NCBI RefSeq assembly: GCF_058153355.1 | Contig: NZ_CM177019.1 | Reading direction: 5' to 3' (one strand) | DNA: 64,000 nucleotides | In this document: piece after piece, positions 4,455-62,187 of the stretch | How positions within the stretch are numbered: the first letter of the stretch is position 1 | How the letters are laid out: every line of letters begins with the position of its first letter | Program-made: the position numbers and the translations under genes | Notes under the pieces: generated by a model | What the model was told of the DNA's origin: nothing | The model's input: the letters and a program-made list of their open reading frames with translations, nothing else | Databases searched by the model: none

Positions 4455-5825
4455 ATGGCTCGTTCTTTTAAAGTCTTATCGCCAACGGCAATCCTCGGGT
4501 ATGGATTCCCGGAAGAGAGCTTCCGCAAAGCGATGGCAGAATCGCCCGATCTGATCGCCGTTGATGCAGGCTCTTCCGATCCTGGCCCCCACTACCTCGG
4601 GGCGGGCAAACCGTTTACCGATCGCGCAGGGGTCAAACGCGATCTACGCTATATGATCACCGCAGGCGTGCAAAATAATATACCGGTGGTGATCGGAACG
4701 GCCGGCGGTTCTGGTGCAGCTCCACACCTGGAGTGGTGCCGAGAAATAATTCATGAGATTGCCCGGGAAGAGCACCTCGCGTTCTCGATGGCGCTGATCC
4801 CGGCAGACGTTGACAAAGCCATCGTCCACCAGGCGCTGGATAACGGCAAAATCACGGCGCTGGATTTTGTCCCGCCGTTAACCCACGACGCGATTGACGA
4901 AAGTACGTATATCGTCGCGCAAATGGGCGTCGAACCCTTCCAGCAGGCGCTGAAAGAAGGCGCGCAAGTGGTGCTGGGCGGGCGCGCTTACGACCCGGCC
5001 TGCTTTGCTGCGCTACCGATCATGCAAGGCTTTGATGAAGGTCTGGCGCTGCATTGTGGGAAAATCCTTGAATGCGCGGCAATCGCCGCAACGCCCGGCT
5101 CAGGCTCTGACTGTGCGATGGGCATCATTGATGACAACGGCTTTACGCTGAAGACATTTAATCCGAAGCGTAAATTTACCGAAACGTCAGCGGCTGCACA
5201 CACACTGTATGAGAAATCCGATCCCTACTTCCTGCCAGGACCTGGCGGCGTGTTGAACCTGAAAGGTTGCACATTTAAAGCGATCAATGATGGCGAAGTT
5301 TACGTCAGCGGTTCTAAGCATGAAGAAACGCCCTATGCCCTGAAACTGGAAGGTGCGCGGCGGGTGGGTTTCCGCTGTTTGACCATCGCCGGAACGCGCG
5401 ACCCGATCATGATCGCCGGGATCGATAACATCATCGATGAAGTCAAAACCAGCGTTTCGCGTAATCTGTCCTTAGACGATGACAGCATTCGCATCAATTT
5501 CCACCTGTACGGCAAAAACGGGGTGATGGGTAACCATGAACCGATGCAAACTGCCGGGCATGAGCTGGGGATTGTCCTTGATGTAGTTGCACCGACCCAG
5601 GAAATTGCCAACAGCGTTTGCTCGCTGGTGCGCTCTACCATGCTGCACTACGGCTATGAAAACCGCATCGCTACCGCAGGCAACCTGGCGTTCCCGTTCT
5701 CCCCTTCTGATATCCAGGGCGGGCCGGTATACGAATTTTCCATATATCACCTGATTGAAGCCAACGACGCTCTGCGTTTTGATTTCCATATTGAACAGGT
5801 GACGCCAGAAGGAGTTCAGGCATGA
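4455..5825 (+). CDS. DUF1446 (AtuA-like) family protein, function unknown
   Basis: 456-aa ORF tightly packed in the operon; family assignment from recollection of AtuA-like sequence features. Confidence 0.6.
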   Translation: MARSFKVLSPTAILGYGFPEESFRKAMAESPDLIAVDAGSSDPGPHYLGAGKPFTDRAGVKRDLRYMITAGVQNNIPVVIGTAGGSGAAPHLEWCREIIHEIAREEHLAFSMALIPADVDKAIVHQALDNGKITALDFVPPLTHDAIDESTYIVAQMGVEPFQQALKEGAQVVLGGRAYDPACFAALPIMQGFDEGLALHCGKILECAAIAATPGSGSDCAMGIIDDNGFTLKTFNPKRKFTETSAAAHTLYEKSDPYFLPGPGGVLNLKGCTFKAINDGEVYVSGSKHEETPYALKLEGARRVGFRCLTIAGTRDPIMIAGIDNIIDEVKTSVSRNLSLDDDSIRINFHLYGKNGVMGNHEPMQTAGHELGIVLDVVAPTQEIANSVCSLVRSTMLHYGYENRIATAGNLAFPFSPSDIQGGPVYEFSIYHLIEANDALRFDFHIEQVTPEGVQA

Positions 5826-9990: not shown

Positions 9991-10891
9991 TCTCCTGCGG
10001 TACGACCGATTTCGCCAGCAACCATTCACGAAATTGCTGCAAGTGCGGCGAGTCAGACTTCTCTTCCTGCCACGTCATAATAAAACGATTACCGGTACGA
10101 ATAGGCACATCACAGGGAATCACCATATCGCCACTATCCAAATCATGTTGAATAGCGAACCGTGGTAACAGCGCCACGCCGAGATTAGAGCGCACGGCGG
10201 CAATCAGCATTGAAAGCAAATCGAAACGTGGTCCGTTATTGACCAGCGGACTGCTAACGCCAGATAAAGCAAACCACTCTTCCCAGCCAGTAATACGGGT
10301 GCTTTGATGCAGAAGTGGTAACTCAGTAAGCAGTTCTGCCACTGAAAGTTTTTGATCGGACATTGCAAGCAAACTGCCGCTGCATACCGGCAAAATCTCC
10401 TCTTCAAAGAGATATTCTACTTCCGCCCAGGGCGCGCAAAAATTTTCGCGCATAATGACAGCATCGTACTCCCGATTAAGAAAATCGCCGTTATTAGCTA
10501 AAGAATGAATATTAACAATAATATCGGGATGTAACTTTGTGAATTCATGTAAATTTGGGATTAACCAGTGGGTACTAAACGTAGGATTAACGGCAAGTTC
10601 AATAACCTGAACCGTAGGCTGCCAGGTCATAATCGTATTGGTATCGCGTTCCAGCTTATTTAATGTTTCTTTTACTATCCCCAGGTAATACTTCCCTGCA
10701 TCATTAAGAAAAATGCGTTTTTTAGAGTGTGAAAATAGCGGAGTATGTAAAAATTCCTCCAGCGCACTTACTTGTCTGAATACAGCACTTTGGGTTAACG
10801 CTAACTCCTCTGCCGCTCTGGTATAGCTTTCATGACGTGCGACGACCTCAAAAGTCACCAGCAGCTCCGTTTTAGGTATTTTTCCTCGCAT
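9986..10891 (-). CDS. LysR-family transcriptional regulator
   Basis: N-terminal helix-turn-helix typical of LysR regulators (TFEVVARHESYTRAAEELALTQSAVFRQV). Start could instead be the upstream ATG at 10921. Confidence 0.85.
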   Translation of the reverse strand: MRGKIPKTELLVTFEVVARHESYTRAAEELALTQSAVFRQVSALEEFLHTPLFSHSKKRIFLNDAGKYYLGIVKETLNKLERDTNTIMTWQPTVQVIELAVNPTFSTHWLIPNLHEFTKLHPDIIVNIHSLANNGDFLNREYDAVIMRENFCAPWAEVEYLFEEEILPVCSGSLLAMSDQKLSVAELLTELPLLHQSTRITGWEEWFALSGVSSPLVNNGPRFDLLSMLIAAVRSNLGVALLPRFAIQHDLDSGDMVIPCDVPIRTGNRFIMTWQEEKSDSPHLQQFREWLLAKSVVPQEM

Positions 10892-15089: not shown

Positions 15090-15275
15090 GTCACCCGTAG
15101 GCCTGATAAGACGCGCAAGCGTCGCATCAGGCATCGCGTGTCGGATGCGGCGCGAGCGCCTTATCCGACCTACATTGATGGTCCCCGTAGGCCTGATAAG
15201 ACGCGTCAGCGTCGCATCAGGCTTCAATTGCCGGAGAAAGCGATAATGCCTCATCCGGTCTACAGTGCAGGTGAA
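15090..15275. repeat. REP/BIME palindromic elements in the sucB-sucC intergenic region
   Basis: Repeated gcctgataagacgcg...cgtcgcatcaggc and ggatgcggcg palindromic units. Confidence 0.8.
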
Positions 15276-19476: not shown

Positions 19477-19762
19477 ATTTCCTGCATTTCTTTTGTAGGC
19501 CGGATAAGGCGTTCACGCCGCATCCGGCGCTGTTTGCCTGATGCGACGCTTGCGCGTCTTATCAGGCCTACGATTCCTGCATTTCTTTTGTAGGCCGGAT
19601 AACGCATTCACGCCGCATCCGGCACTGGTTGCCTGATGCGACGCTTGCGCGTCTTATCAGGCCTACGATTTCTGCATTTCTTTTGTAGGCCGGATAAGGC
19701 GTTCACGCCGCATCCGGCACTGGTTGCCTGATGCGACGCTTGTGCGTCTTATCAGGCCTGGG
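19477..19762. repeat. Three tandem copies of a ~95-bp REP/BIME unit in the sdhB-sucA intergenic region
   Basis: Unit tctgcatttcttttgtaggccggataaggcgttcacgccgcatccggc...gcctgatgcgacgcttgcgcgtcttatcaggcctac repeated head-to-tail three times with a few substitutions. Confidence 0.85.
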
Positions 19763-50776: not shown

Positions 50777-51349
50777 ATGAGTGGATTACGTCCGGCATTA
50801 TCAACATTTCTCTTTTTGTTACTGATTACTGGCGGTGTTTACCCGCTGCTGACCACCGCGCTGGGGCAATGGTGGTTTCCCTGGCAGGCCAATGGTTCGT
50901 TGATTCGCGAAGGTGATACGGTGCGCGGCTCGGCATTAATCGGGCAGAATTTTACCGGCAACGGCTATTTTCATGGTCGCCCGTCGGCAACGGCAGAAAT
51001 GCCCTATAATCCACAGGCTTCTGGCGGGAGCAATCTGGCGGTCAGTAACCCTGAGCTGGATAAACAAATCGCTGCACGCGTTGCCGCATTACGGGCCGCT
51101 AACCCGGACGCCAGCACGAGCGTTCCGGTTGAACTGGTGACGGCGTCAGCAAGCGGGCTGGACAATAACATTACCCCGCAAGCGGCGGCCTGGCAGATTC
51201 CTCGCGTGGCGAAAGCGCGTAATCTCAGCGTTGAACAGCTCACGCAGCTGATCGCAAAATATAGCCAACAACCGCTGGTGAAATATATCGGCCAGCCGGT
51301 CGTCAACATTGTCGAACTCAATCTGGCGCTGGATAAGCTTGATGAATAA
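50777..51349 (+). CDS. kdpC: Potassium-transporting ATPase subunit C
   Basis: Start placed at [27 protein letters not shown], giving 190 aa. Confidence 0.95.
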
Positions 51350-54026
51350 CGAACCCTTACGTCCCGACCCCGATCGTCTGCTGGAACAAACTGCCGCGCC
51401 GCACCGGGGGAAGCTGAAAGTTTTTTTCGGTGCCTGTGCAGGCGTCGGGAAGACCTGGGCGATGCTGGCAGAAGCCCAACGACTGCGGGCGCAAGGGCTG
51501 GATATTGTGGTTGGCGTGGTTGAAACTCACGGACGGAAAGATACCGCCGCAATGCTGGAAGGGCTGGCTGTTCTGCCGCTAAAACGCCAGGCGTACCGTG
51601 GGCGGCATATCAGCGAGTTTGATCTCGATGCCGCCCTCGCCCGCCGTCCGGCGCTGATCTTAATGGACGAACTGGCGCACAGTAATGCGCCAGGTTCTCG
51701 TCATCCTAAACGCTGGCAGGACATTGAAGAGCTGCTGGAAGCAGGCATTGATGTTTTCACTACCGTCAACGTTCAGCATCTGGAAAGTCTGAATGATGTG
51801 GTCAGTGGCGTCACCGGAATTCAGGTACGGGAAACCGTGCCCGATCCTTTTTTTGATGCTGCCGACGACGTGGTGCTGGTGGACTTGCCCCCGGACGATC
51901 TGCGCCAGCGGCTGAAAGAAGGCAAAGTCTATATTGCCGGGCAGGCGGAGCGCGCCATTGAACACTTTTTCCGCAAAGGCAATCTGATCGCCCTGCGCGA
52001 ACTGGCACTGCGCCGTACTGCCGATCGCGTAGATGAGCAAATGCGCGCCTGGCGGGGGCATCCTGGCAAAGAGAAAGTCTGGCACACGCGCGACGCGATC
52101 CTTTTATGTATTGGGCATAACACCGGCAGCGAAAAACTGGTCCGCGCGGCGGCGCGGTTGGCGTCACGGCTGGGGAGCATCTGGCACGCGGTGTATGTTG
52201 AAACCCCTGCCCTGCACCGCTTACCGGAGAAAAAACGTCGGGCAATTCTCAGCGCCTTACGTCTGGCGCAGGAGCTGGGCGCGGAGACGGCAACACTTTC
52301 TGATCCAGCGGAAGAGAAAGCGGTAGTGCGTTATGCCCGTGAACATAATCTCGGCAAGATTATTCTCGGTCGCCCGGCCTCGCGCCGCTGGTGGCGTCGG
52401 GAAACGTTTGCTGACCGACTGGCGCGAATCGCCCCCGATCTCGATCAGGTGCTGGTCGCGCTTGATGAACCACCCGCCCGCACGATTAACAACGCGCCGG
52501 ATAGCCGCTCTTTTAAAGACAAGTGGCGGGTACAGATTCAGGGATGCGTGGTTGCCGCCGCGTTATGCGCCGTTATCACCTTAATTGCCATGCAGTGGCT
52601 GATGGCGTTTGATGCCGCCAACCTAGTGATGCTGTATCTGCTTGGCGTGGTGGTGGTGGCGCTATTTTATGGACGCTGGCCTTCGGTGCTTGCTACCGTC
52701 ATTAATGTGGTGAGTTTCGATCTCTTTTTTATCGCCCCACGCGGCACGCTCGCCGTCTCTGATGTGCAGTATCTGCTGACTTTCGCGGTGATGTTAACCG
52801 TCGGGCTGGTGATCGGGAATCTTACTGCTGGCGTACGTTATCAGGCGCGGGTAGCCCGTTACCGCGAGCAACGCACACGACACTTATATGAAATGTCGAA
52901 AGCTCTGGCTGTGGGACGCAGTCCGCAGGACATCGCCGCCACCAGCGAACAATTTATTGCTTCCACGTTTCATGCCCGCAGTCAGGTGTTGTTGCCCGAT
53001 GACAACGGCAAATTGCAGCCGTTGACACATCCGCAAGGAATGACGCCGTGGGACGATGCCATCGCGCAATGGAGTTTTGATAAAGGCCTGCCTGCGGGCG
53101 CGGGCACCGACACGTTACCCGGTGTGCCATACCAGATTTTGCCGTTAAAAAGCGGCGAGAAAACCTACGGACTGGTGGTGGTGGAACCGGGGAATCTGCG
53201 CCAGTTGATGATCCCGGAACAGCAACGCCTGCTGGAGACGTTCACGCTGTTAGTTGCCAATGCCCTGGAACGCCTGGCACTGACCGCCAGCGAAGAACAG
53301 GCGCGGATGGCAAGCGAACGAGAACAGATCCGCAACGCCCTGCTGGCGGCGCTTTCGCATGATTTACGCACGCCGCTTACGGTGCTGTTCGGTCAGGCAG
53401 AAATCTTAACGCTCGATCTGGCAAGCGAAGGATCGCCTCACGCCCGCCAGGCCAGCGAGATTCGTCAGCATGTGCTGAACACGACCCGACTGGTGAATAA
53501 TCTACTGGATATGGCGCGAATTCAGTCCGGCGGCTTTAATTTGAAGAAAGAGTGGTTAACGCTGGAAGAAGTGGTCGGCAGCGCGCTGCAAATGCTGGAA
53601 CCGGGTTTATCCTCGCCCATCAACCTTTCTCTGCCAGAACCGCTGACCTTAATCCACGTTGACGGGCCACTCTTTGAACGGGTGCTGATTAATCTGCTGG
53701 AGAACGCGGTGAAATACGCGGGTGCGCAGGCCGAAATTGGTATCGATGCCCACGTTGAGGGCGAAAATCTACAACTGGATGTCTGGGATAACGGCCCCGG
53801 TCTTCCACAAGGCCTGGAGCAGGCGATATTCGATAAGTTTGCTCGTGGAAATAAAGAGTCGGCGGTGCCGGGCGTTGGGCTTGGGCTGGCAATTTGTCGG
53901 GCGATTGTGGATGTACACGACGGCACCATTACCGCGTTCAACCGACCGCAAGGTGGTGCCTGTTTTCGTGTTACACTTCCCCAGCAAACTGCCCCTGAAC
54001 TTGAAGAATTTCATGAGGATATGTGA
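51342..54026 (+). CDS. kdpD: Sensor histidine kinase KdpD
   Basis: Start placed at [14 protein letters not shown], giving 894 aa; histidine-kinase H-box LSHDLRTPL; overlaps kdpC and kdpE. Confidence 0.97.
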
Positions 54027-54700
54027 CAAACGTTCTGATTGTTGAAGATGAACAGGCTATTCGTCGCTTTCTGCGCACAGCGCTGGAGGGCGATGGGATG
54101 CGCGTCTTTGAGGCCGAAACGCTGCAACGCGGCTTGCTGGAAGCGGCAACCCGTAAGCCAGATTTGATTATTCTCGATCTCGGCCTGCCAGACGGTGATG
54201 GGATTGAGTTTATCCGCGACCTGCGCCAGTGGAGCGCGGTGCCAGTAATTGTGCTTTCCGCCCGCAGCGAAGAGAGCGACAAAATCGCCGCGCTGGATGC
54301 CGGAGCGGATGATTACCTGAGTAAGCCATTTGGTATTGGCGAATTACAGGCCCGTCTGCGCGTTGCTTTACGCCGCCACTCTGCTACCACCGCGCCCGAT
54401 CCGCTGGTGAAATTTTCTGATGTTACCGTCGATTTAGCCGCCCGCGTAATCCACCGCGGCGAGGAAGAGGTGCACCTCACACCGCTTGAGTTCCGCCTGC
54501 TGGCGGTGCTGCTCAACAACGCCGGAAAAGTGCTCACCCAGCGCCAGCTCCTCAACCAGGTGTGGGGGCCAAATGCGGTCGAACACAGCCACTATTTGCG
54601 TATATATATGGGGCATCTGCGACAAAAACTGGAGCAAGATCCCGCCCGCCCTCGCCATTTTATTACTGAAACCGGTATTGGGTATCGGTTTATGCTTTGA
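54023..54700 (+). CDS. kdpE: Response regulator KdpE (OmpR family)
   Basis: 225-aa ORF starting [17 protein letters not shown], with receiver and winged-helix domains. Confidence 0.97.
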   Translation: MTNVLIVEDEQAIRRFLRTALEGDGMRVFEAETLQRGLLEAATRKPDLIILDLGLPDGDGIEFIRDLRQWSAVPVIVLSARSEESDKIAALDAGADDYLSKPFGIGELQARLRVALRRHSATTAPDPLVKFSDVTVDLAARVIHRGEEEVHLTPLEFRLLAVLLNNAGKVLTQRQLLNQVWGPNAVEHSHYLRIYMGHLRQKLEQDPARPRHFITETGIGYRFML

Positions 54701-54736
54701 ATGTTAATTTTAATATATCCTGTCTTTTATTAATTA

Positions 54737-54766
54737 AAGCCGTAATAATAAATACGGCTTTTTATC
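54737..54766 (+). terminator. kdpE intrinsic terminator
   Basis: Hairpin aagccgta-ataataaa-tacggctt followed by a T-run. Confidence 0.7.
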
Positions 54767-54933
54767 TTAAACAACACACAAAAATAACAATTCAATATTT
54801 TATATTACTGAGTGAAAAACTCATCATTAAATAAATTAAGGTTGATCATTTTTTATTGATCACCTTCACAGTTCAACCGTATTTTCTGGATAGAATACCT
54901 TCACCTTCATTCACATCAGGAAAGGTAAATCAA

Positions 54934-55038
54934 ATGGAAAACAACAGCCGCACTATGCCCCATATAAGGCGGACAACCCATATTATGAAGTTTGCTCATC
55001 GTAATAGCTTCGACTTTCACTTCTTCAATGCCCGTTAG
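54934..55038 (+). CDS. speFL: speF leader / ornithine-sensing ribosome arrest peptide SpeFL
   Basis: 34-codon ORF MENNSRTMPHIRRTTHIMKFAHRNSFDFHFFNAR about 250 bp upstream of speF, preceded by an AGGAAAGG ribosome-binding site. Confidence 0.85.
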   Translation: MENNSRTMPHIRRTTHIMKFAHRNSFDFHFFNAR

Positions 55039-55295
55039 TCTGTCGACTAAGGGCACTTCAGCGTACAGGTCTTCCTGACTCTCTGTATTACAGGCATACG
55101 CCTGTATTCCGCAGTGCTCATTCTCTGTTAACCCTTATATTATCAGCCACCGGACTGGTAAGGGTTTCTGCATTCTGAAAAAAGCAATCTACTGATTTAT
55201 TTATCAGCGGGGTAACTTTGCTTTTTTTCCGGCACGATCGATTTCTCATTCGAGAAATTGAGGACCTGCTATTACCTAAACTAAAGAGATGAAAA

Positions 55296-57494
55296 ATGTC
55301 AAAATTAAAAATTGCGGTTAGTGATTCTTGCCCGGACTGTTTTACCACGCAGCGAGAATGTATCTATATTAATGAAAACAGTAATATCGATGTGGCGGCA
55401 ATAGTTTTATCGATCAACGATGTTGCACGAGGAAAACTCGATGAAATCGATGCCACGGGTTATGGCATCCCGGTATTTATTGCTACTGAAGATAAAGAAC
55501 GTGTACCCGCAGAGTATTTGCCCCGTATTTCGGGTGTATTTGAGAATTGCGAATCACGACGAGAATTTTATGGTCGTCAGTTAGAAACCGCAGCCAGCCA
55601 TTATGAAACTCAACTGCGCCCGCCCTTCTTCCGCGCACTGGTCGATTATGTCAATCAGGGCAATAGCGCTTTTGACTGCCCGGGTCATCAGGGGGGTGAG
55701 TTTTTCCGTCGCCATCCGGCAGGCAATCAGTTCGTGGAATATTTTGGCGAAATGCTCTTCCGCTCCGACTTGTGTAATGCCGACGTAGCAATGGGCGATC
55801 TACTGATTCATGAAGGTGCGCCATGCATTGCACAGCAACATGCGGCTAAAGTGTTTAATGCCGATAAAACGTACTTTGTTTTAAACGGCACCTCCTCTTC
55901 CAACAAAGTGGTTTTAAACGCCCTGCTAACACCGGGTGATCTGGTGCTGTTTGACCGCAATAACCATAAGTCTAACCACCACGGGGCCTTGCTACAGGCT
56001 GGTGCAACACCGGTTTATCTGGAAACAGCACGTAACCCGTATGGTTTTATCGGTGGTATTGATGCGCACTGCTTCGAAGAAAGTTATCTGCGTGAACTGA
56101 TTAGAGAAGTTGCACCGCAACGGGCAAAAGAGGCGCGTCCGTTCCGCCTCGCTGTGATTCAGTTAGGCACCTACGACGGTACTATTTATAACGCCCGCCA
56201 GGTGGTGGATAAAATCGGTCATCTGTGTGACTACATCCTGTTTGACTCAGCATGGGTCGGCTATGAACAGTTTATTCCGATGATGGCGGACTGTTCGCCG
56301 CTGCTACTGGAGCTTAATGAGAACGATCCGGGTATTCTGGTTACGCAATCTGTACATAAGCAGCAGGCTGGTTTTTCTCAGACTTCACAAATTCATAAAA
56401 AAGACAGCCATATCAAAGGGCAACAGCGTTATGTACCGCACAAACGCATGAACAACGCCTTTATGATGCACGCCTCCACCAGCCCGTTCTATCCGCTGTT
56501 TGCCGCACTGGATATTAACGCCAAAATGCATGAAGGTGTCAGCGGTCGTAATATGTGGATGGATTGTGTGGTTAACGGTATTAATGCCCGCAAATTGATC
56601 CTCGATAACTGCCAGCACATTCGTCCGTTCGTTCCTGAACTGGTGGATGGTAAACCCTGGCAATCGTATGAAACAGCGCAAATTGCGGTTGATCTGCGCT
56701 TCTTTAAATTTGTACCCGGTGAGCACTGGCATTCTTTTGAAGGTTACGCAGAGAATCAATACTTTGTCGATCCGTGCAAACTGTTGCTGACAACCCCAGG
56801 TATTGATGCACGTAACGGCGAATACGAAGCGTTCGGTGTACCCGCGACGATTCTTGCTAACTTCCTGCGCGAAAATGGCGTAGTGCCGGAAAAATGCGAT
56901 CTTAACTCCATCCTCTTCCTGCTGACTCCGGCAGAAGATATGGCCAAACTGCAGCAACTTGTTGCCCTGCTGGTACGCTTCGAAAAACTACTGGAAGCTG
57001 ATGCGCCTCTGGCGGAAGTATTGCCTTCCATCTACAAACAGCATGAAGAGCGCTACGCCGGTTATACCCTGCGTCAGTTGTGCCAGGAAATGCATGATTT
57101 GTATGCCCGTCACAACGTGAAACAACTGCAAAAAGAGATGTTCCGTAAGGAACACTTCCCACGCGTCAGCATGAATCCACAGGAAGCCAACTATGCCTAC
57201 TTACGCGGTGAAGTGGAATTGGTTCGTCTGCCGGATGCAGAAGGCCGTATCGCAGCCGAAGGTGCGCTTCCTTATCCTCCGGGTGTGCTGTGTGTTGTTC
57301 CGGGTGAAATCTGGGGTGGTGCTGTTCTGCGTTACTTCAGCGCTCTGGAAGAAGGGATCAATCTGCTGCCAGGTTTTGCACCGGAGCTGCAGGGTGTCTA
57401 TATCGAAGAACATGATGGTCGTAAGCAAGTTTGGTGCTATGTCATCAAGCCTCGTGATGCGCAAAGCACCCTGTTGAAAGGGGAAAAATTATGA
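55296..57494 (+). CDS. speF: Inducible ornithine decarboxylase
   Basis: 732-aa ORF with PLP-dependent decarboxylase sequence (SVHKQQAG). Confidence 0.97.
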   Translation: MSKLKIAVSDSCPDCFTTQRECIYINENSNIDVAAIVLSINDVARGKLDEIDATGYGIPVFIATEDKERVPAEYLPRISGVFENCESRREFYGRQLETAASHYETQLRPPFFRALVDYVNQGNSAFDCPGHQGGEFFRRHPAGNQFVEYFGEMLFRSDLCNADVAMGDLLIHEGAPCIAQQHAAKVFNADKTYFVLNGTSSSNKVVLNALLTPGDLVLFDRNNHKSNHHGALLQAGATPVYLETARNPYGFIGGIDAHCFEESYLRELIREVAPQRAKEARPFRLAVIQLGTYDGTIYNARQVVDKIGHLCDYILFDSAWVGYEQFIPMMADCSPLLLELNENDPGILVTQSVHKQQAGFSQTSQIHKKDSHIKGQQRYVPHKRMNNAFMMHASTSPFYPLFAALDINAKMHEGVSGRNMWMDCVVNGINARKLILDNCQHIRPFVPELVDGKPWQSYETAQIAVDLRFFKFVPGEHWHSFEGYAENQYFVDPCKLLLTTPGIDARNGEYEAFGVPATILANFLRENGVVPEKCDLNSILFLLTPAEDMAKLQQLVALLVRFEKLLEADAPLAEVLPSIYKQHEERYAGYTLRQLCQEMHDLYARHNVKQLQKEMFRKEHFPRVSMNPQEANYAYLRGEVELVRLPDAEGRIAAEGALPYPPGVLCVVPGEIWGGAVLRYFSALEEGINLLPGFAPELQGVYIEEHDGRKQVWCYVIKPRDAQSTLLKGEKL

Positions 57495-58810
57495 GTCAGG
57501 CTAAATCGAACAAAATGGGCGTCGTTCAGTTAACCATACTGACGATGGTCAACATGATGGGCTCCGGCATCATCATGCTGCCGACAAAGCTTGCCGAAGT
57601 TGGGACAATCTCAATAATCTCCTGGTTGGTGACAGCCGTAGGCTCAATGGCGCTGGCATGGGCATTCGCAAAATGCGGTATGTTCAGCCGTAAATCAGGC
57701 GGTATGGGCGGTTATGCCGAGTATGCTTTCGGTAAATCCGGTAACTTTATGGCGAACTATACCTACGGCGTCTCGCTGCTGATTGCTAACGTGGCGATTG
57801 CTATTTCGGCAGTTGGTTACGGCACCGAACTGCTCGGCGCGAGTTTGTCACCAGTGCAGATTGGTCTGGCAACCATCGGAGTGCTGTGGATTTGTACCGT
57901 GGCTAACTTTGGTGGTGCGCGCATTACCGGGCAAATCAGTAGCATTACCGTGTGGGGGGGCATTATTCCGGTGGTAGGCTTGTGCGTTATCGGCTGGTTC
58001 TGGTTTAGCCCGACACTTTACGTTGATTCCTGGAATCCGCATCATGCACCGTTCTTCAGTGCGGTAGGTTCTTCCATCGCCATGACGCTGTGGGCTTTTC
58101 TTGGTCTGGAGTCTGCGTGTGCGAATACTGATGTAGTGGAAAACCCGGAACGTAATGTGCCAATCGCGGTACTCGGCGGTACGTTAGGTGCGGCGGTGAT
58201 TTATATCGTCTCCACCAACGTGATTGCCGGGATTGTGCCCAATATGGAGCTGGCAAATTCAACGGCACCATTTGGTCTGGCCTTCGCGCAAATGTTCACA
58301 CCGGAAGTGGGTAAAGTCATTATGGCGCTGATGGTGATGTCCTGCTGCGGTTCGCTACTTGGCTGGCAGTTCACCATTGCCCAGGTGTTTAAATCTTCAT
58401 CTGATGAAGGCTACTTCCCTAAAATTTTCTCCCGTGTAACCAAAGTGGATGCACCGGTTCAGGGGATGTTGACCATTGTGATTATTCAGAGTGGATTGGC
58501 ACTGATGACCATTAGCCCGTCACTGAACAGCCAGTTCAACGTGCTGGTTAACCTGGCCGTGGTGACCAATATCATCCCATATATTCTGTCGATGGCGGCA
58601 TTAGTCATTATTCAGAAGGTCGCCAATGTGCCACCATCAAAAGCGAAAGTAGCAAACTTTGTTGCCTTTGTTGGTGCGATGTACAGTTTCTATGCGCTGT
58701 ACTCATCCGGGGAAGAAGCCATGCTGTACGGTTCCATCGTGACTTTCCTTGGTTGGACACTGTATGGTCTGGTATCACCACGCTTTGAACTGAAAAACAA
58801 ACACGGTTAA
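57491..58810 (+). CDS. potE: Putrescine:ornithine antiporter
   Basis: 439-aa APC-family transporter; start overlaps the speF stop. Confidence 0.97.
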   Translation: MSQAKSNKMGVVQLTILTMVNMMGSGIIMLPTKLAEVGTISIISWLVTAVGSMALAWAFAKCGMFSRKSGGMGGYAEYAFGKSGNFMANYTYGVSLLIANVAIAISAVGYGTELLGASLSPVQIGLATIGVLWICTVANFGGARITGQISSITVWGGIIPVVGLCVIGWFWFSPTLYVDSWNPHHAPFFSAVGSSIAMTLWAFLGLESACANTDVVENPERNVPIAVLGGTLGAAVIYIVSTNVIAGIVPNMELANSTAPFGLAFAQMFTPEVGKVIMALMVMSCCGSLLGWQFTIAQVFKSSSDEGYFPKIFSRVTKVDAPVQGMLTIVIIQSGLALMTISPSLNSQFNVLVNLAVVTNIIPYILSMAALVIIQKVANVPPSKAKVANFVAFVGAMYSFYALYSSGEEAMLYGSIVTFLGWTLYGLVSPRFELKNKHG

Positions 58811-58825
58811 TAAAGCGAAATAAAA

Positions 58826-58860
58826 AAGGGCGATTGAATGATCGCCCTTTCTGTTTGTTG
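58826..58860 (+). terminator. potE intrinsic terminator
   Basis: Hairpin aagggcgat-tgaatg-atcgccctt followed by a T-rich tract. Confidence 0.75.
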
Positions 58861-58880
58861 ACAAAGAGTTCGTTATTTAT

Positions 58881-59024
58881 GCCGCATCCGGCAGGTGTAG
58901 GGTCCAAACGCGGTCGAACACAGCAACTATTTGCGTAATTATATGAGGCATTTGCGACAAAAACTGGAACAGGATCTCGTCCGCCCCGCCATTTCATTAC
59001 TGAAACCGGTATTGGGTATCGGTT
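58881..59024. repeat. Degenerate non-coding duplicate of the kdpE 3' end (direct repeat of 54557..54700)
   Basis: Manual alignment gives roughly 90% identity over ~144 nt (about 14 substitutions and one 1-nt indel), including the kdpE stop codon context ...ggtattgggtatcggtttatgctttga. Confidence 0.85.
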
Positions 59025-59157
59025 TATGCTTTGAAAAAAGTGGCAATGTATGGATAAAGTCATTTTTTATTCAAATATAAGGAACTTAATATTTAAAAAA
59101 TGTCCCATACAATGCCTCATCATAAATGACACCGTAGCACACAAGGAGCAAGTAGCG

Positions 59158-59808
59158 ATGCGTGAAGTGAGTCAGTTAGTAAATACTGAAGATTCAGCCT
59201 GGCCAATAATCCAGAATTGGTTAAAAGAAGCCACAAACCATGCCGAACTCTTACCGGTTAATAAAGATTTAGCCGAAACCGCGCTTTATCAATTACAGGT
59301 TACAACAAAATCACCGATGGGTGCGCTTGTCTATGGCTCCGGAGGTCTGCTGATTGATAACGGTTGGTTACGCATAGCAGGCTCTGGTCACCCCCGGTTA
59401 CCACGAGATCCAGCAAGTTGGACACAACGCCCTGAATTCGCAAGCGTGCGGGCTTTACCCATCGCCGATGATGTCGCAGGGGGAATTTTTGCTCTTAATG
59501 GTGGCGATCTTGGGGAAGATACTGGCTGCGTTTATTATTTTGCGCCAGATACGCTGAATTGGGAAAGTCTGGAGGTTGGATATTCTGAGTTTCTTCAGTG
59601 GGCATTATCCGGTGATTTAGATACCTTCTATGAAAATGTACGCTGGCCGCAATGGCAAGAAGACGTAATAAAATTATCGGCAACGGAAGCCTTCACTTTC
59701 TACCCTTTCTTATGGGTACAAAGTGAAGAAGCAAGAACAAGAAAAGTTATTTCGCTTACTGAACTCTGGGAAATGCAGTATCAAATGAAAGAAACAATCA
59801 CGCAATAA
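59158..59808 (+). CDS. ybfG: DUF2625-family protein
   Basis: Start placed at MREVSQLVNTEDSAWPIIQNWLKEA, giving 216 aa. The ORF track offers a longer version from 59050. Confidence 0.7.
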   Translation: MREVSQLVNTEDSAWPIIQNWLKEATNHAELLPVNKDLAETALYQLQVTTKSPMGALVYGSGGLLIDNGWLRIAGSGHPRLPRDPASWTQRPEFASVRALPIADDVAGGIFALNGGDLGEDTGCVYYFAPDTLNWESLEVGYSEFLQWALSGDLDTFYENVRWPQWQEDVIKLSATEAFTFYPFLWVQSEEARTRKVISLTELWEMQYQMKETITQ

Positions 59809-59848: not shown

Positions 59849-60343
59849 TTAATGTGTGTTTATCGCTTTCAATTCTTGCTGGCAATTTTCTGACTGACAG
59901 CGTCGCAACTCAATAATCCCGACATGCATCATCGAGCCAAAAAATCCGCTTTCGCTGACATAATCCTCATTAACTATCGGTCGAGTGCCGGGCTTACCCT
60001 GGCAAATCCCCATAAAAAATGAGGTGTAGCATTGCCATTCAGGATTTAAACCGGTCTTTTCTTGTGCTGACATATCATGAAGATAAGTAAGTTCTTTTTC
60101 GTTCCCGCCTGACAACTGCCAGCGGCGGGTATTATCAGGTAAGTTATCGCCACGGCAATTTGTCTTACACCGGGAAGGCGCAATATTTACCGCAATGCTA
60201 CCCGTTAATCCTCTGGTTTTATCTTTAGGGGTCAGTAACCAGTCACCAGCTAATGATGATTGTTCAGGTTGGGCGCATGCTGTCAGCAGTAGTGTGGCGG
60301 TAATTAATGCCACTCTGACGACCAGACTCCTTTTGGTCTTCAT
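59849..60343 (-). CDS. ybfP: Putative lipoprotein
   Basis: Start placed at MKTKRSLVVRVALITATLLLTAC (lipoprotein signal peptide with lipobox LTAC), giving 164 aa. Confidence 0.85.
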   Translation of the reverse strand: MKTKRSLVVRVALITATLLLTACAQPEQSSLAGDWLLTPKDKTRGLTGSIAVNIAPSRCKTNCRGDNLPDNTRRWQLSGGNEKELTYLHDMSAQEKTGLNPEWQCYTSFFMGICQGKPGTRPIVNEDYVSESGFFGSMMHVGIIELRRCQSENCQQELKAINTH

Positions 60344-60399
60344 TTTGAATTCCCTTGAGCTATTCAGTTTGTTGGCAAAGTACTCGTTGTTCATGCCGG

Positions 60400-60500
60400 A
60401 TGCGGCGTGAACGCCTTATCCGTCCTACAAAATAGTGCAAATTCAATATATTGCACCATCCTCGTAGGCCTGATGAACGTAGCGTATCAGGCTATCATAA
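60400..60500. repeat. REP palindromic elements
   Basis: gccggatgcggcgtgaacgccttatccg and aggcctgat...atcaggc palindromic units. Confidence 0.7.
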
Positions 60501-60502
60501 GT

Positions 60503-60535
60503 AAAAAGGGCGATCTTCCGACCGCCCTTTTTCTT
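60503..60535 (-). terminator. pgm intrinsic terminator (bidirectional hairpin)
   Basis: aaaaagggcg-atcttccgac-cgcccttttt with A/T runs on both sides. Confidence 0.8.
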
Positions 60536-60546
60536 ATTTAATGTGT

Positions 60547-62187
60547 TTACGCGTTTTTCAGAACTTCGCTAACAATCTCAACCGCTTCTTTCTCGATCTG
60601 CTTGCGATGTTCTTCACCGAGGAAGCTTTCGCAGTAGATTTTGTATGCGTCTTCCGTGCCTGACGGACGCGCGGCGAACCAGCCGTTGTCAGTCATCACT
60701 TTCAGACCGCCAATAGAAGCACCGTTGCCCGGTGCCGCCGTCAGGCGCGCGGTGATCGGGTCACCAGCCAGGGTGCTGGCGCTCACCATTTCCGGAGACA
60801 GCTTAGACAGCGCCGCTTTTTGCGCGGAAGTCGCAGCTGCCTGCAAACGGTTATAGCTCGGCGCACCAAACCGTTTTGCCAGTTCGTTGTAGTGTTCCTG
60901 CGGGTTCTTACCGGTGACCGCGGTGATTTCTGCCGCCAGCAGACACATAATGATACCGTCTTTATCGGTGGACCACGGCGTGCCGTCGAAACGCAGGAAG
61001 GAAGCCCCTGCGCTCTCTTCGCCGCCAAAGCCGAAGCTGCCGTCGAACAGACCATCAACAAACCATTTGAAGCCTACCGGGACTTCTACCAGCTTACGGC
61101 CCAAATCATTGACCACACGGTCGATCATCGCAGATGAAACCAGCGTTTTACCGACAGCAACATCTTTGCCCCACTGCGGACGATGCTGGAACAGGTAGTT
61201 GATCGCCACTGCCAGGTAATGGTTAGGATTCATCAAACCTGCCGGAGTGACGATACCGTGACGGTCATAATCCGGGTCGTTAGCAAACGCCAGATCGAAC
61301 TTATCACGCAGTGCCAGCAGACCCGCCATCGCACACTCGGAGGAGCAGTCCATACGGATCGCGCCGTCTTTATCAAGGTGCATAAAGCGGAAGGTTTGAT
61401 CGACCTGATCGTTAACGATGGTCAGGTTGAGGTTGTAATACTCGCCAATGCGCTTCCAGTATTCAATACCGGAACCGCCCAGCGGATCAACGCCCAGCGT
61501 CAGGCCCGCTTTCTGAATCGCCGCCATATCAACTATATCGGCCAGACCTTCCACAAACGGCTGCACCAGATCCTGCTCTTTCACATGACCGGATGCCATC
61601 GCTTCGTCGAGGGAGATACGCTTCACACCTTTCAGGCCATCGGCCATCAGTGCGTTGGCCCTGTCCTCCACCACTTTGGTGACGTTAGTATCAGCCGGGC
61701 CACCATTTGGTGGATTGTACTTGATACCACCATCTTCCGGCGGGTTATGGGACGGTGTAATCACGATACCGTCTGCCAGCGGGCCACCTTTTTTATTGTG
61801 AACCAGGATGGCATTGGAAACGGCAGGCGTCGGAGTGAAGCCATTGTTTTCCTGCACAATAACATCTACGCCGTTCGCTGCCAGCACTTCCAGTACGGAA
61901 ATGAACGCAGGCTCGGACAGGGCGTGAGTATCTTTACCCACATAGCAAGGGCCAGTGATGCCGTTTTTCGCACGTTCTTCAGCAATTGCCTGAGCGATCG
62001 CCAGAATATGCGGCTCGTTAAAGCTGTGGCGCGCTGCACTGCCACGGTGACCGGAAGTACCGAATTTCACCGCGTGCTCCGCATTCCCTGCTTCTGGTTT
62101 CAGTACATAGTATTGCGCCGTCAGTTGGGCGACGTTAATCAAATCACTCTGTTGTGCAGGTTGGCCTGCACGATTGTGGATTGCCAT
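60547..62187 (-). CDS. pgm: Phosphoglucomutase
   Basis: Start placed at [16 protein letters not shown], giving 546 aa; phosphoserine-loop motif TSGHRG. Confidence 0.97.

Follow-up and report, generated by a model that had tools for sequence, protein, structure and literature searches.

Organization of the kdpE–pgm interval

The analyzed window is a 64-kb stretch of DNA that carries, between kdpE and pgm, a speFL-speF-potE module followed by a second copy of the kdpE 3′ end and by the genes ybfG and ybfP (Table 1). It is collinear with K-12 across 11.2 kb at 95.9% identity, and the KdpE protein it encodes is 100% identical to that of K-12. The kdpE 3′ end (copy A) comprises codon 179 to the TGA stop codon plus one nucleotide (kdpE nucleotides 535–678 + 1). 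Pairwise alignment with the kdpE-derived copy B gives 90.3% identity over 145 columns, with 13 mismatches, a 1-nt deletion in copy B and a longest identity run of 29 nt. In a blastn search of the 64-kb window, this similarity has an E value of 4.4e-52, while the second-best kdpE match is 17 nt long (E = 0.011), and no second copy of kdpE nucleotides 1–534 was found there.

Table 1. Features of the kdpE–pgm interval, in window coordinates
Feature	Position	Strand	Description	Evidence
kdpE	54023..54700	+	Intact response regulator, 225 aa	ORF; syntenic annotation
Copy A	54557..54701	+	kdpE 3′ end	Repeat search, alignment, blastn
speFL	54934..55038	+	Leader peptide ORF, 34 aa, MENNSRTMPHIRRTTHIMKFAHRNSFDFHFFNAR	Read from sequence; position as annotated speFL in K-12-like genomes
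speF	55296..57494	+	Inducible ornithine decarboxylase	ORF; 98% aa identity to K-12 SpeF; annotation
potE	57491..58810	+	Putrescine-ornithine antiporter	ORF; 100% aa identity to K-12 PotE; annotation
T_L	58822..58850	.	Terminator-like hairpin after potE, GGGCGAT-TGAATG-ATCGCCC	Terminator scan matches on both strands; cross-allele/species comparison
ybfP leader duplicate	58850..58880	-	31-nt duplicate of ybfP 5′ leader	Alignment to original 60364-60394
REP-like 12-mer	58881..58892	.	GCCGCATCCGGC, at join	Exact reverse complement of first 12 nt of REP consensus
Copy B (ybfI equivalent)	58892..59035	+	TGG→TAG, H→N, I→N; 1-nt deletion in window	Alignment, blastn
ybfG	59158..59808	+	DUF2625 (PF10946), 216 aa; intact here, pseudogene in K-12	Translation, PF10946 homologs, annotation
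ybfP	59849..60343	-	Lipoprotein gene (PGAP-equivalent start; ORF can reach 60394)	ORF; tblastn and annotation in L001/L084
Original ybfP leader	60364..60394	-	5′ leader segment, duplicated at 58850-58880	Alignment, direct comparison
REP pair (BIME)	60395..60495	.	Between ybfP and pgm	REP consensus 60395-60428; Rfam ES036/CssrF match 60429-60471
T_R	60503..60532	.	pgm-side terminator hairpin, GGGCGATCTTCCGACCGCCC	Cross-allele comparison
pgm	60547..62187	-	Phosphoglucomutase, conserved right anchor of locus	ORF, homology, annotation

A preliminary description of this DNA had reported a direct repeat of the kdpE tail at about 90% identity, and these values bear it out. Copy B, which it had put at 58881–59024, lies 11 nt further right. 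It had also described the second copy as non-coding, and copy B indeed does not code, with an in-frame TGG→TAG change at fragment codon 3 and, in the window version, a frameshift as well. The speFL-speF-potE unit lies between the two copies, as had been stated, and the potE terminator hairpin is likewise inside. No genes other than these three are annotated between copies A and B, and neither a transposase nor convincing terminal inverted repeats were found in that interval.

Relationship of copy B to ybfI

In MG1655, a pseudogene, ybfI (b4636, 716721–716870), is annotated between potE and ybfG. Copy B has the same position and orientation, and its equivalents are labeled by PGAP as “winged HTH domain-containing protein, missing N-terminus” (partial pseudogene). 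Its homology is to the 3′ end of kdpE, which encodes the winged-helix DNA-binding part; in K-12, a tblastn search with KdpE residues 177–225 matches ybfI at 84%. The fragment is disabled by the loss of kdpE nucleotides 1–534, by the TAG at codon 3 in all copies and, in the window, by the 1-nt deletion. Copy B and K-12 ybfI thus share locus, orientation, kdpE-derived sequence and the TAG, H→N and I→N decay, but they differ at 11 of 144 nucleotides, the deletion is an extra of the window copy, and the neighboring ybfG is intact in the window and a pseudogene in K-12. Judged by sequence and position, the window carries, as copy B, the ybfI orthologue of another E. coli lineage; the genomes closest to it are IAI39, SMS-3-5 and CE10. 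The repeat is therefore an already annotated relic and not new, and its population history is modestly interesting. A literature search on the E. coli ybfI locus, on ybfG/ybfP/speF and on REP join points there returned nothing, the ybfI matches concerning an unrelated B. subtilis gene.

Four changes (W→*, one synonymous Gly change, H→N and I→N) occur in every version of copy B and in none of the 14 Escherichia kdpE alleles examined, which argues for a single origin followed by decay. Copy B differs from E. coli TGA-type kdpE alleles at 12–15 of 144 sites, four of them the shared decay, and from the kdpE of E. albertii and E. whittamii at 19–21 of 144 by one count and 16–21 by another; its identity to Citrobacter kdpE is at most 85%. 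It falls within E. coli kdpE allele diversity, and its similarity to kdpE breaks off precisely at the stop codon, the point at which kdpE-downstream alleles diverge. Copy B, hereafter also the remnant, is best read as a dead 3′ fragment (codons 179–225) of an E. coli-type kdpE allele, very probably devoid of a function of its own.

Distribution of the module and of the remnant

We surveyed 5,426 complete E. coli genomes, with counts defined by megablast coverage thresholds and not by a curated pangenome. The order kdpE-speF-potE-pgm without a second kdpE fragment occurs in 3,168 of them; in O157:H7 and B2 genomes, for instance, kdpE-speFL-speF-potE is followed by pgm 56 bp further on, with no remnant. 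The remnant together with ybfG and ybfP was found in 1,830–1,847 genomes (about 34%, or one third). Roughly 400 genomes (about 7–8%) lack speF-potE, and 305 have a kdpE-REP-pgm arrangement. At least five arrangements of the kdpE–pgm spacer exist in E. coli: kdpE-pgm, kdpE-ybfP-pgm, kdpE-ybfG-ybfP-pgm, kdpE-speF-potE-pgm and the remnant-bearing form.

For other species, we considered the best 80 loci of one contig scan, among which Salmonella, E. fergusonii and Shigella are not represented. Among these loci, the module lies between kdpE and pgm with a single kdpE 3′ end in E. albertii and more than 30 species, including members of Citrobacter, Enterobacter, Kluyvera, Lelliottia, Leclercia, Cedecea, Atlantibacter and other genera. 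A second kdpE fragment, ybfG or ybfP was present at none of the 77 other-species loci among the best 80 listed. SpeF and PotE identities track species relationships, at 94/96% for E. albertii, 90–95% for Citrobacter and about 85/92% for Enterobacter. Because of this tracking, and because copy B sits inside E. coli kdpE diversity, the module is much older than copy B, which in turn is far younger than the arrival of the module at the locus.

The remnant was found only alongside the low-GC ybfG (DUF2625)-ybfP segment, and on this distribution copy B is taken to travel with ybfG-ybfP and not with speF-potE. The segment spans roughly 1.7 kb between the potE terminator and pgm and consists of the ybfP-leader fragment, the REP-like 12-mer, the truncated 'kdpE, ybfG, ybfP, the REP pair and a second terminator. 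Its GC content is 0.40–0.48, compared with 0.54–0.59 in the flanks, and the nearest YbfG homologs outside E. coli are only about 50–57% identical. Presence in about 34% of genomes and atypical GC are features of a horizontally acquired genomic islet. The annotation of the segment shows neither an integrase nor a tRNA target nor att repeats; the repeats at its flanks are the terminator copies and not att sites.

A composite left junction and the origin of the remnant

The left edge of the segment is a mosaic that runs from an E. albertii-type potE terminator through the 31-nt ybfP leader duplicate and the REP-like 12-mer into kdpE from codon 179 onward. T_L has the form of the sole potE/pgm terminator found in E. 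albertii (one E. albertii genome compared). The stretch 58849–58892 matches positions 4772–4815 of locus L086 at 84% across 44 nt (blastn). The 12-mer occupies the same position relative to the leader duplicate as the true REP does after the original leader, at 60395; the REP match at the join is limited to these 12 nt, while the full consensus at 60395–60428 matches with one mismatch. T_R is common to all E. coli alleles and E. whittamii and shares a 13–15-nt identity run with T_L; a stem mismatch caused it to be missed by a simple terminator scan. In remnant-free E. coli, the terminator is chimeric, with the potE left flank fused to the T_R loop.

This composite edge points to a merger of two haplotypes, one carrying speF-potE and the other kdpE-ybfG-ybfP. 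We consider it probable that the ybfI remnant arose by such a merger through a REP-associated join and then decayed. In this model, the Escherichia ancestor would already have had speF-potE in the kdpE–pgm interval, together with an E. albertii-type T_L. A haplotype of the order kdpE-ybfG-ybfP-REP-T_R-pgm would then have undergone a REP-associated illegitimate join, in its simplest form a tandem duplication joining the ybfP-adjacent REP to kdpE codon 179, after which the interior of the left copy would have been replaced by kdpE-speFL-speF-potE-T_L. The outcome would be a doubling, in direct orientation, of the kdpE 3′ end, the ybfP leader and the terminator. This second step is the weakest and stands as a reconstruction, since a synthetic junction query for the duplication intermediate (full ybfP 5′ region, REP and 'kdpE) matched none of the 5,426 genomes. 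REP sequences reportedly lie at tandem-duplication join points in Salmonella; the present locus resembles those cases in the REP-like sequence at the illegitimate join to codon 179 and differs from them in that the intermediate was not observed. Subsequent neutral decay of copy B is seen in the four fixed changes, including the nonsense codon, that phylogroup A-type and window-type copies have in common, and in the lineage-specific changes added to them.

Recombination between the terminator copies (13–15 nt), or with a kdpE-pgm allele, may have produced the majority potE-T-pgm arrangement. Given its chimeric terminator, the prevailing remnant-free allele of E. coli has the look of a secondary product of deletion between terminator copies. 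A more far-reaching proposal is that the remnant arrangement is a fossil merger of two ancient kdpE-pgm spacer haplotypes, ancestral to the “clean” majority made by terminator-copy deletion, and that three repeat sets still generate polymorphism of the module; we put this forward tentatively. In the three-step model, the case for T_L as ancestral comes from one E. albertii genome, in a sample that does not include Salmonella, E. fergusonii or Shigella. Among the genomes surveyed, we found no unambiguous ancient kdpE-ybfG-ybfP parent allele: the CUWW10 allele described below looks derived, and that of GF4-3 cannot be polarized. The kdpE-REP-ybfP-pgm alleles of A_5, LP5-1 and 042 were rejected as parents of copy B, their kdpE ending in TAG and running into the REP pair, not into ybfG-upstream sequence.

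Alternatively, 'kdpE-ybfG-ybfP could have been imported whole from another species with a natural kdpE-ybfG-ybfP order, by an illegitimate join on the left and a homologous exchange in pgm on the right, so that copy B would be foreign. The low GC of the segment, the distance of YbfG from its next-best homologs and the unusual divergence of the locus between E. coli lineages (95.9%, window versus K-12) fit such an import, as does the end of the copy B homology at the kdpE stop codon, expected from a contiguous kdpE-ybfG donor. However, copy B is nearest to E. coli TGA-type kdpE and farther from that of E. albertii, E. whittamii and Citrobacter, neither kdpE-ybfG nor ybfP occurs at any of the 77 other-species loci among the best 80 listed, and T_R and the REP pair on the right are ordinary E. 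coli pgm-side sequences. Import would also leave the ybfP-leader duplicate unexplained, and we regard it as unlikely.

Deletion of the module between the two copies

A synthetic query joining the left side of copy A to the right side of copy B had full-length matches in only two of the 5,426 E. coli genomes, CUWW10 and GF4-3. CUWW10 has lost speFL-speF-potE and kept kdpE intact. To the left of the junction, CUWW10 and a circulating remnant-bearing allele (L092) agree at 100% for 2,165 nt; to the right, it agrees at 100% with ST540-type alleles for 1,548 nt; and its KdpD, KdpE, DUF2625 and YbfP proteins are identical to those of the remnant-bearing genome L092. At every site that distinguishes A from B, CUWW10 has the copy A state, and it then continues into B-downstream sequence, which places the crossover inside the last 19-nt identity run. 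By these sequence comparisons, CUWW10 is shown to be an exact recombinant between copies A and B. GF4-3 has the same structure, which cannot be polarized as ancestral or derived.

Both alleles might instead be surviving ancestral parents, in which case repeat-mediated deletion would be unproven. The kdpE 3′ end of each is free of the copy B decay mutations, and GF4-3 has flanks about 2% diverged from the K-12 type and a ybfG-ybfP flank whose best match is 99.1%. Against this, a parent that predates the roughly 6–8% decay of copy B could not equal today's copy A everywhere, the CUWW10 flanks and proteins are identical to circulating ones, and crossovers at the 3′ end are those that preserve wild-type KdpE. 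Ancestry of this kind is distinctly unlikely.

Recombination between copies A and B occasionally deletes speFL-speF-potE and spares kdpE, as CUWW10 shows. The preliminary description had proposed that the repeats can mediate deletion and had suggested looking for precise excision between them; CUWW10 provides such a strain, and GF4-3 agrees in structure. The event is rare (1–2 of 5,426 genomes). As in other deletions between dispersed direct repeats, a dispensable segment is flanked and a natural one-copy product exists, but identity between the repeats here is just about 90%, and no identical run exceeds 29 nt. An identity run of 19 nt is shorter than the length usually deemed efficient for RecA-dependent exchange, and with the CUWW10 crossover in so short a run, the mechanism may be either homologous recombination or slippage/annealing. 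KL53 was rejected as a further excision of this type, as its kdpE retains the native downstream sequence and lies directly against IS1, which indicates an IS1-associated deletion.

Comparison with insertion models

The preliminary description had read the two copies as the footprint of an ancient insertion of speFL-speF-potE into the kdpE-ybfG junction, by target duplication or recombination. Taken strictly, this means target duplication or integration by a single crossover, with all carriers of the module at this site descending from that event. The module and its own regulatory region do lie exactly between the direct copies, the kdpE-ybfG junction is present in two genomes, and, as had been anticipated, just one copy is present where speF-potE is missing (in the kdpE-pgm, kdpE-ybfP-pgm and kdpE-ybfG alleles and in every module-free species sampled). 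However, lineages with the module at this site should then show both copies or their decay, and many have a single kdpE 3′ end: the 3,168 remnant-free E. coli genomes, E. albertii and more than 30 species carry the module with neither a second copy nor ybfG. The age of the module, set by SpeF/PotE identities against kdpE diversity, also speaks against a common event, and the kdpE-ybfG junction of CUWW10 is derived, not ancestral. A simple insertion would leave the ybfP-leader and terminator duplicates unexplained and would not account for the REP-like 12-mer. The insertion reading is largely refuted and very unlikely to be correct. Recombination survives in the weaker form given above, the joining of a speF-potE allele to a kdpE-ybfG allele, which is the best origin model.

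Target-site duplications of transposons and IS elements are exact and 2–14 bp long. The present repeats likewise bracket a gene module directly, but they are 144 bp long and diverged to 90% identity, and with neither a transposase nor terminal inverted repeats, target-site duplication by a mobile element was rejected. IS1 occurs near the locus only in the unrelated variants KL53 and H25. Campbell-type integration also places cargo between direct homologous copies, and its reverse reaction restores a single copy, as in CUWW10. In contrast to that system, an integrase, an att site and a free circular form are all lacking here, the cargo is chromosomal and ancestrally resident at the locus in many genera, and the ybfP-leader, REP and terminator duplicates would need further events.

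Selection for a functional copy B (a small winged-helix protein, a KdpE decoy, a regulatory RNA or a ybfG promoter) is extremely improbable: its retention by about 1,840 genomes from deep branches of E. coli and the weak promoter-like hexamers at 59031–59060, which overlap its 3′ end upstream of ybfG, are set against the TAG in all copies, the absent start codon and the window frameshift, changes in neutral nonsynonymous and synonymous proportions, divergence between the two lineages that is faster than in neighboring genes, its traceless absence from most E. coli, a number of promoter-like matches within expectation (6 versus 3.5 ± 2.0 in shuffles), and an Rfam search that found no family covering copy B, on which ground a functional RNA was rejected.

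Implications for the kdpE–pgm locus

In E. coli, the spacer between kdpE and pgm is a multi-allelic hotspot. Copy B itself, already annotated as a pseudogene, gives no indication of a function, and its value is modest and evolutionary; for annotation pipelines, it offers a clean case of a partial response-regulator match to keep as a pseudogene. The ybfI repeat is a documented, rare route to precise loss of speF-potE with kdpE intact. If the haplotype merger is true, the direct repeats of the kdpE 3′ end, the ybfP leader and the terminator would keep making the acid-stress polyamine module polymorphic.

The kdpE direct repeat corresponds to ybfI

The window runs opposite to the K-12 map of this E. 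coli chromosome segment. The end of kdpE (nt 535–678 plus 1 base; copy A) is present again downstream of potE (copy B), at 90.3% identity; the alignment contains 13 mismatches, and copy B lacks 1 nt (blastn within the window, E=4.4e-52). This bears out the direct repeat reported in the preliminary description, which placed copy B 11 nt too far to the left. In the window, kdpE nt 1–534 are single-copy, and no other kdpE match in the 64 kb is longer than 17–27 nt.

Coordinates of features at the kdp–pgm locus of the window
Feature	Position	Strand	Remark
kdpD	51309–54026
kdpE	54023–54700
Copy A	54557–54701		kdpE 3′ end
speFL	54934–55038
speF	55296–57494
potE	57491–58810
T_L	58822–58850		terminator hairpin, GGGCGAT-TGAATG-ATCGCCC
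31-nt duplicate of ybfP 5′ leader	58850–58880
REP-like 12-mer	58881–58892
Copy B	58892–59035		from kdpE codon 179 onward
ybfG (DUF2625)	59158–59808
ybfP	59849–60343	minus
Original of the 31-nt leader	60364–60394		directly adjoins REP
REP	60395–60428
T_R	60503–60532		second terminator, loop CTTCCGAC, adjoins pgm
pgm	60547–62187	minus

Because its third codon is TAG replacing TGG and the window copy is additionally frameshifted, copy B is non-coding. The orthologous fragment in MG1655 (NC_000913.3) is annotated as pseudogene ybfI (b4636), between potE and pseudogene ybfG (b0691); in other genomes PGAP labels it ‘winged helix-turn-helix domain-containing protein, incomplete, missing N-terminus’. 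Copy B is ybfI, every defining feature of which was found on testing, and is thereby a known, annotated feature; a literature search returned nothing on E. coli ybfI, ybfG or ybfP. No function is indicated for this remnant, which has a nonsense codon in all copies, diverges fast and neutrally and is lost in most strains; it matches no Rfam family.

Over the 11-kb kdpD–fldA region, the window and K-12 are only 95.9% identical, and the kdpE 3′ end (54557–54700) is hypervariable within E. coli (compared with L001–L004 and L085–L092): 9 of 144 sites differ between the window and K-12, all synonymously, with KdpE proteins 100% identical. TGA and TAG stop-codon classes of kdpE go with different downstream haplotypes. 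The kdpE–speFL spacer has two unrelated versions, a K-12/window type and an O157/B2 type. In O157-type spacers a 135-nt PGAP ORF overlaps the speFL start (L002 8306–8440, L003 8306–8440, L091 2232–2366); labeled ‘hypothetical protein’ in some genomes and ‘TonB-dependent receptor’ in ST540, it is probably a spurious call. The ybfG reading frame (216 aa) is intact in the window and many E. coli, and has an internal stop in K-12 (L001 6380–7030).

Origin and decay of copy B

Copy B differs from E. coli TGA-stop kdpE alleles at 12–15 of 144 sites and from those of E. albertii and E. whittamii at 16–21, and is at most 85% identical to Citrobacter kdpE; these comparisons assign it to an E. coli-type kdpE end. 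All versions of copy B that were examined (those of the window, K-12, ST540 and ER02-39) share four changes, W to stop, one synonymous, H to N and I to N, that are absent from 14/14 Escherichia kdpE alleles; this points to one origin and neutral decay thereafter. A further 11 sites separate the window copy from the K-12-type copy, so the event is old, preceding the split of these lineages. Homology between copies A and B stops exactly 1 nt after the kdpE stop codon, the same point at which alternative kdpE-downstream alleles part from one another, indicating that the fragment was once the end of a kdpE running directly into ybfG-upstream sequence.

Arrangements of the kdpE–pgm spacer

The preliminary description took the repeats as the footprint of an ancient speF-potE insertion by target duplication or recombination. 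Transposon target-site duplication was rejected, as the repeat is 144 bp long and diverged, and neither a transposase nor terminal inverted repeats are present. The insertion reading itself conflicts with the distribution of the module. Among 5,426 complete E. coli genomes, 3,168 have kdpE-speF-potE-pgm without the remnant, and 1,830–1,847 share the window arrangement (remnant, ybfG and ybfP). Another 305 have kdpE-REP-pgm without speF-potE, and most of the remainder have kdpE-REP-ybfP-REP-pgm (e.g. A_5, LP5-1 and 042). In the annotated genomes of O157:H7 and a B2 strain, pgm follows kdpE-speFL-speF-potE after 56 bp, with no kdpE fragment, ybfG or ybfP at the locus.

We also compared the best 80 Enterobacterales loci, one genome per species, 77 of them from other species. 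The common ground plan is kdpE adjoining convergent pgm, and speF-potE lies between them in >30 species, including E. albertii, Citrobacter, Enterobacter, Kluyvera, Lelliottia, Leclercia, Cedecea, Trabulsiella and Atlantibacter, with SpeF/PotE identities declining in parallel with species relatedness. Among these best 80 loci, ybfG, ybfP and a repeated kdpE 3′ fragment are all absent from the 77 that belong to other species. Together with the E. coli counts, this shows that speF-potE has resided at the locus for far longer than copy B, which is linked to the ybfG–ybfP segment. That segment has a GC content of 0.40–0.48 versus 0.54–0.59 in kdp and pgm, and the next-best homologs of its DUF2625 gene outside E. 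coli are only ~50–57% identical.

The module speFL-speF-potE is absent from ~7–8% of complete E. coli genomes (the 305 kdpE-REP-pgm genomes and the kdpE-REP-ybfP-pgm class including strain 042; examples L004, L085, L086 and L087), which means that the inducible ornithine decarboxylase/antiporter does not belong to the E. coli core genome. E. whittamii (L005) also lacks it. In Klebsiella indica (L018), a potE 3′ fragment (10638–10751; residues 402–439, 68% identity) abuts or overlaps the kdpE end, with pgm next, and looks like an independent speF-potE deletion scar in another genus.

A composite scar at the left junction

The left junction of copy B is a composite scar. Three sequences occur as direct repeats: the terminator, the 3′ end of kdpE, and the ybfP leader together with the beginning of the REP. 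The single potE/pgm terminator of E. albertii is of T_L type. On the pgm side, all E. coli alleles and E. whittamii have a T_R-type terminator; the terminator of remnant-free E. coli fuses the left flank of potE to the T_R loop. Judging from this distribution and the chimeric terminator, the remnant-bearing allele apparently cannot derive from the present remnant-free E. coli allele, and the reverse derivation is plausible, either by deletion across the 13–15 nt common to T_L and T_R or by recombination with a kdpE-pgm allele.

The doubled sequences and terminator types suggest that two haplotypes were joined to give the remnant-bearing allele, one carrying speF-potE and T_L, the other a truncated kdpE-ybfG-ybfP-REP-T_R. 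The kdpE repeat resembles the product of a Campbell-type or unequal recombination. The simplest path would be a REP-associated tandem duplication of truncated kdpE-ybfG-ybfP-REP, followed by replacement of the interior of the left copy by kdpE-speF-potE-T_L. This path is a reconstruction, as the tandem-duplication intermediate was found in no complete E. coli genome.

An Rfam ES036/CssrF sRNA match in the ybfP–pgm REP pair (60429–60471, plus strand; 45.5 bits, gathering 37.6) probably just reflects REP/BIME sequence. At 19495–19758 and 15100–15170, three tandem REP units (consensus matches at 19495, 19590 and 19685) and a fourth unit in the opposite orientation match naRNA4/CssrE (RF02564, 75–87 bits). 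A group II catalytic intron D1-D4-2 match (RF01999; 40079–40196, minus strand; 42.9 bits, gathering 36) appears to mark an intron or intron fragment ~15 kb upstream of the kdp operon.

Repeat-mediated loss of speF-potE

For excision, we searched with a synthetic query that joins kdpE upstream sequence with copy B and the beginning of ybfG. Only two complete E. coli genomes, CUWW10 and GF4-3, matched over the full length. CUWW10 has the order kdpD-kdpE-ybfG-ybfP-pgm with a single kdpE. Its KdpD, KdpE, DUF2625 and YbfP protein accessions are identical to those of the remnant-bearing Res13-Lact-ER02-39, and CUWW10 also shares 2,165 nt of left flank with that genome at 100% identity. On the right, 1,548 nt of its flank match ST540-type remnant-bearing genomes at 100%. 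As CUWW10 is of copy A type at all distinguishing sites and then continues into B-downstream sequence, the crossover lies within the final 19-nt identity run, TATCGGTTTATGCTTTGAA. The suggestion that the repeats can delete the module is thus borne out by a precise excision of the predicted kind, which could have arisen by homologous exchange or short-homology slippage. GF4-3 has the same structure and, with its diverged flanks, cannot be polarized.

A third match, KL53 (L090; 79%), was rejected as repeat-mediated excision: kdpE there still has its native downstream sequence and borders on IS1, making KL53 an IS1-associated deletion. In KL53, IS1 goes with loss of speFL-speF-potE-ybfI, and IS1 insertions recur in or beside the ybfG–ybfP segment (Res13-Lact-PEB20-37-A, H25; the further genomes H101/H102; KL53).

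Of the earlier interpretation, a recombination origin and the potential for deletion stand; the module-insertion footprint and target duplication do not. The kdpE repeat behaves as a weak deletion substrate, and the modestly new content lies in the multi-allelic history of the kdpE–pgm spacer and in a natural example of repeat-mediated speF-potE loss.
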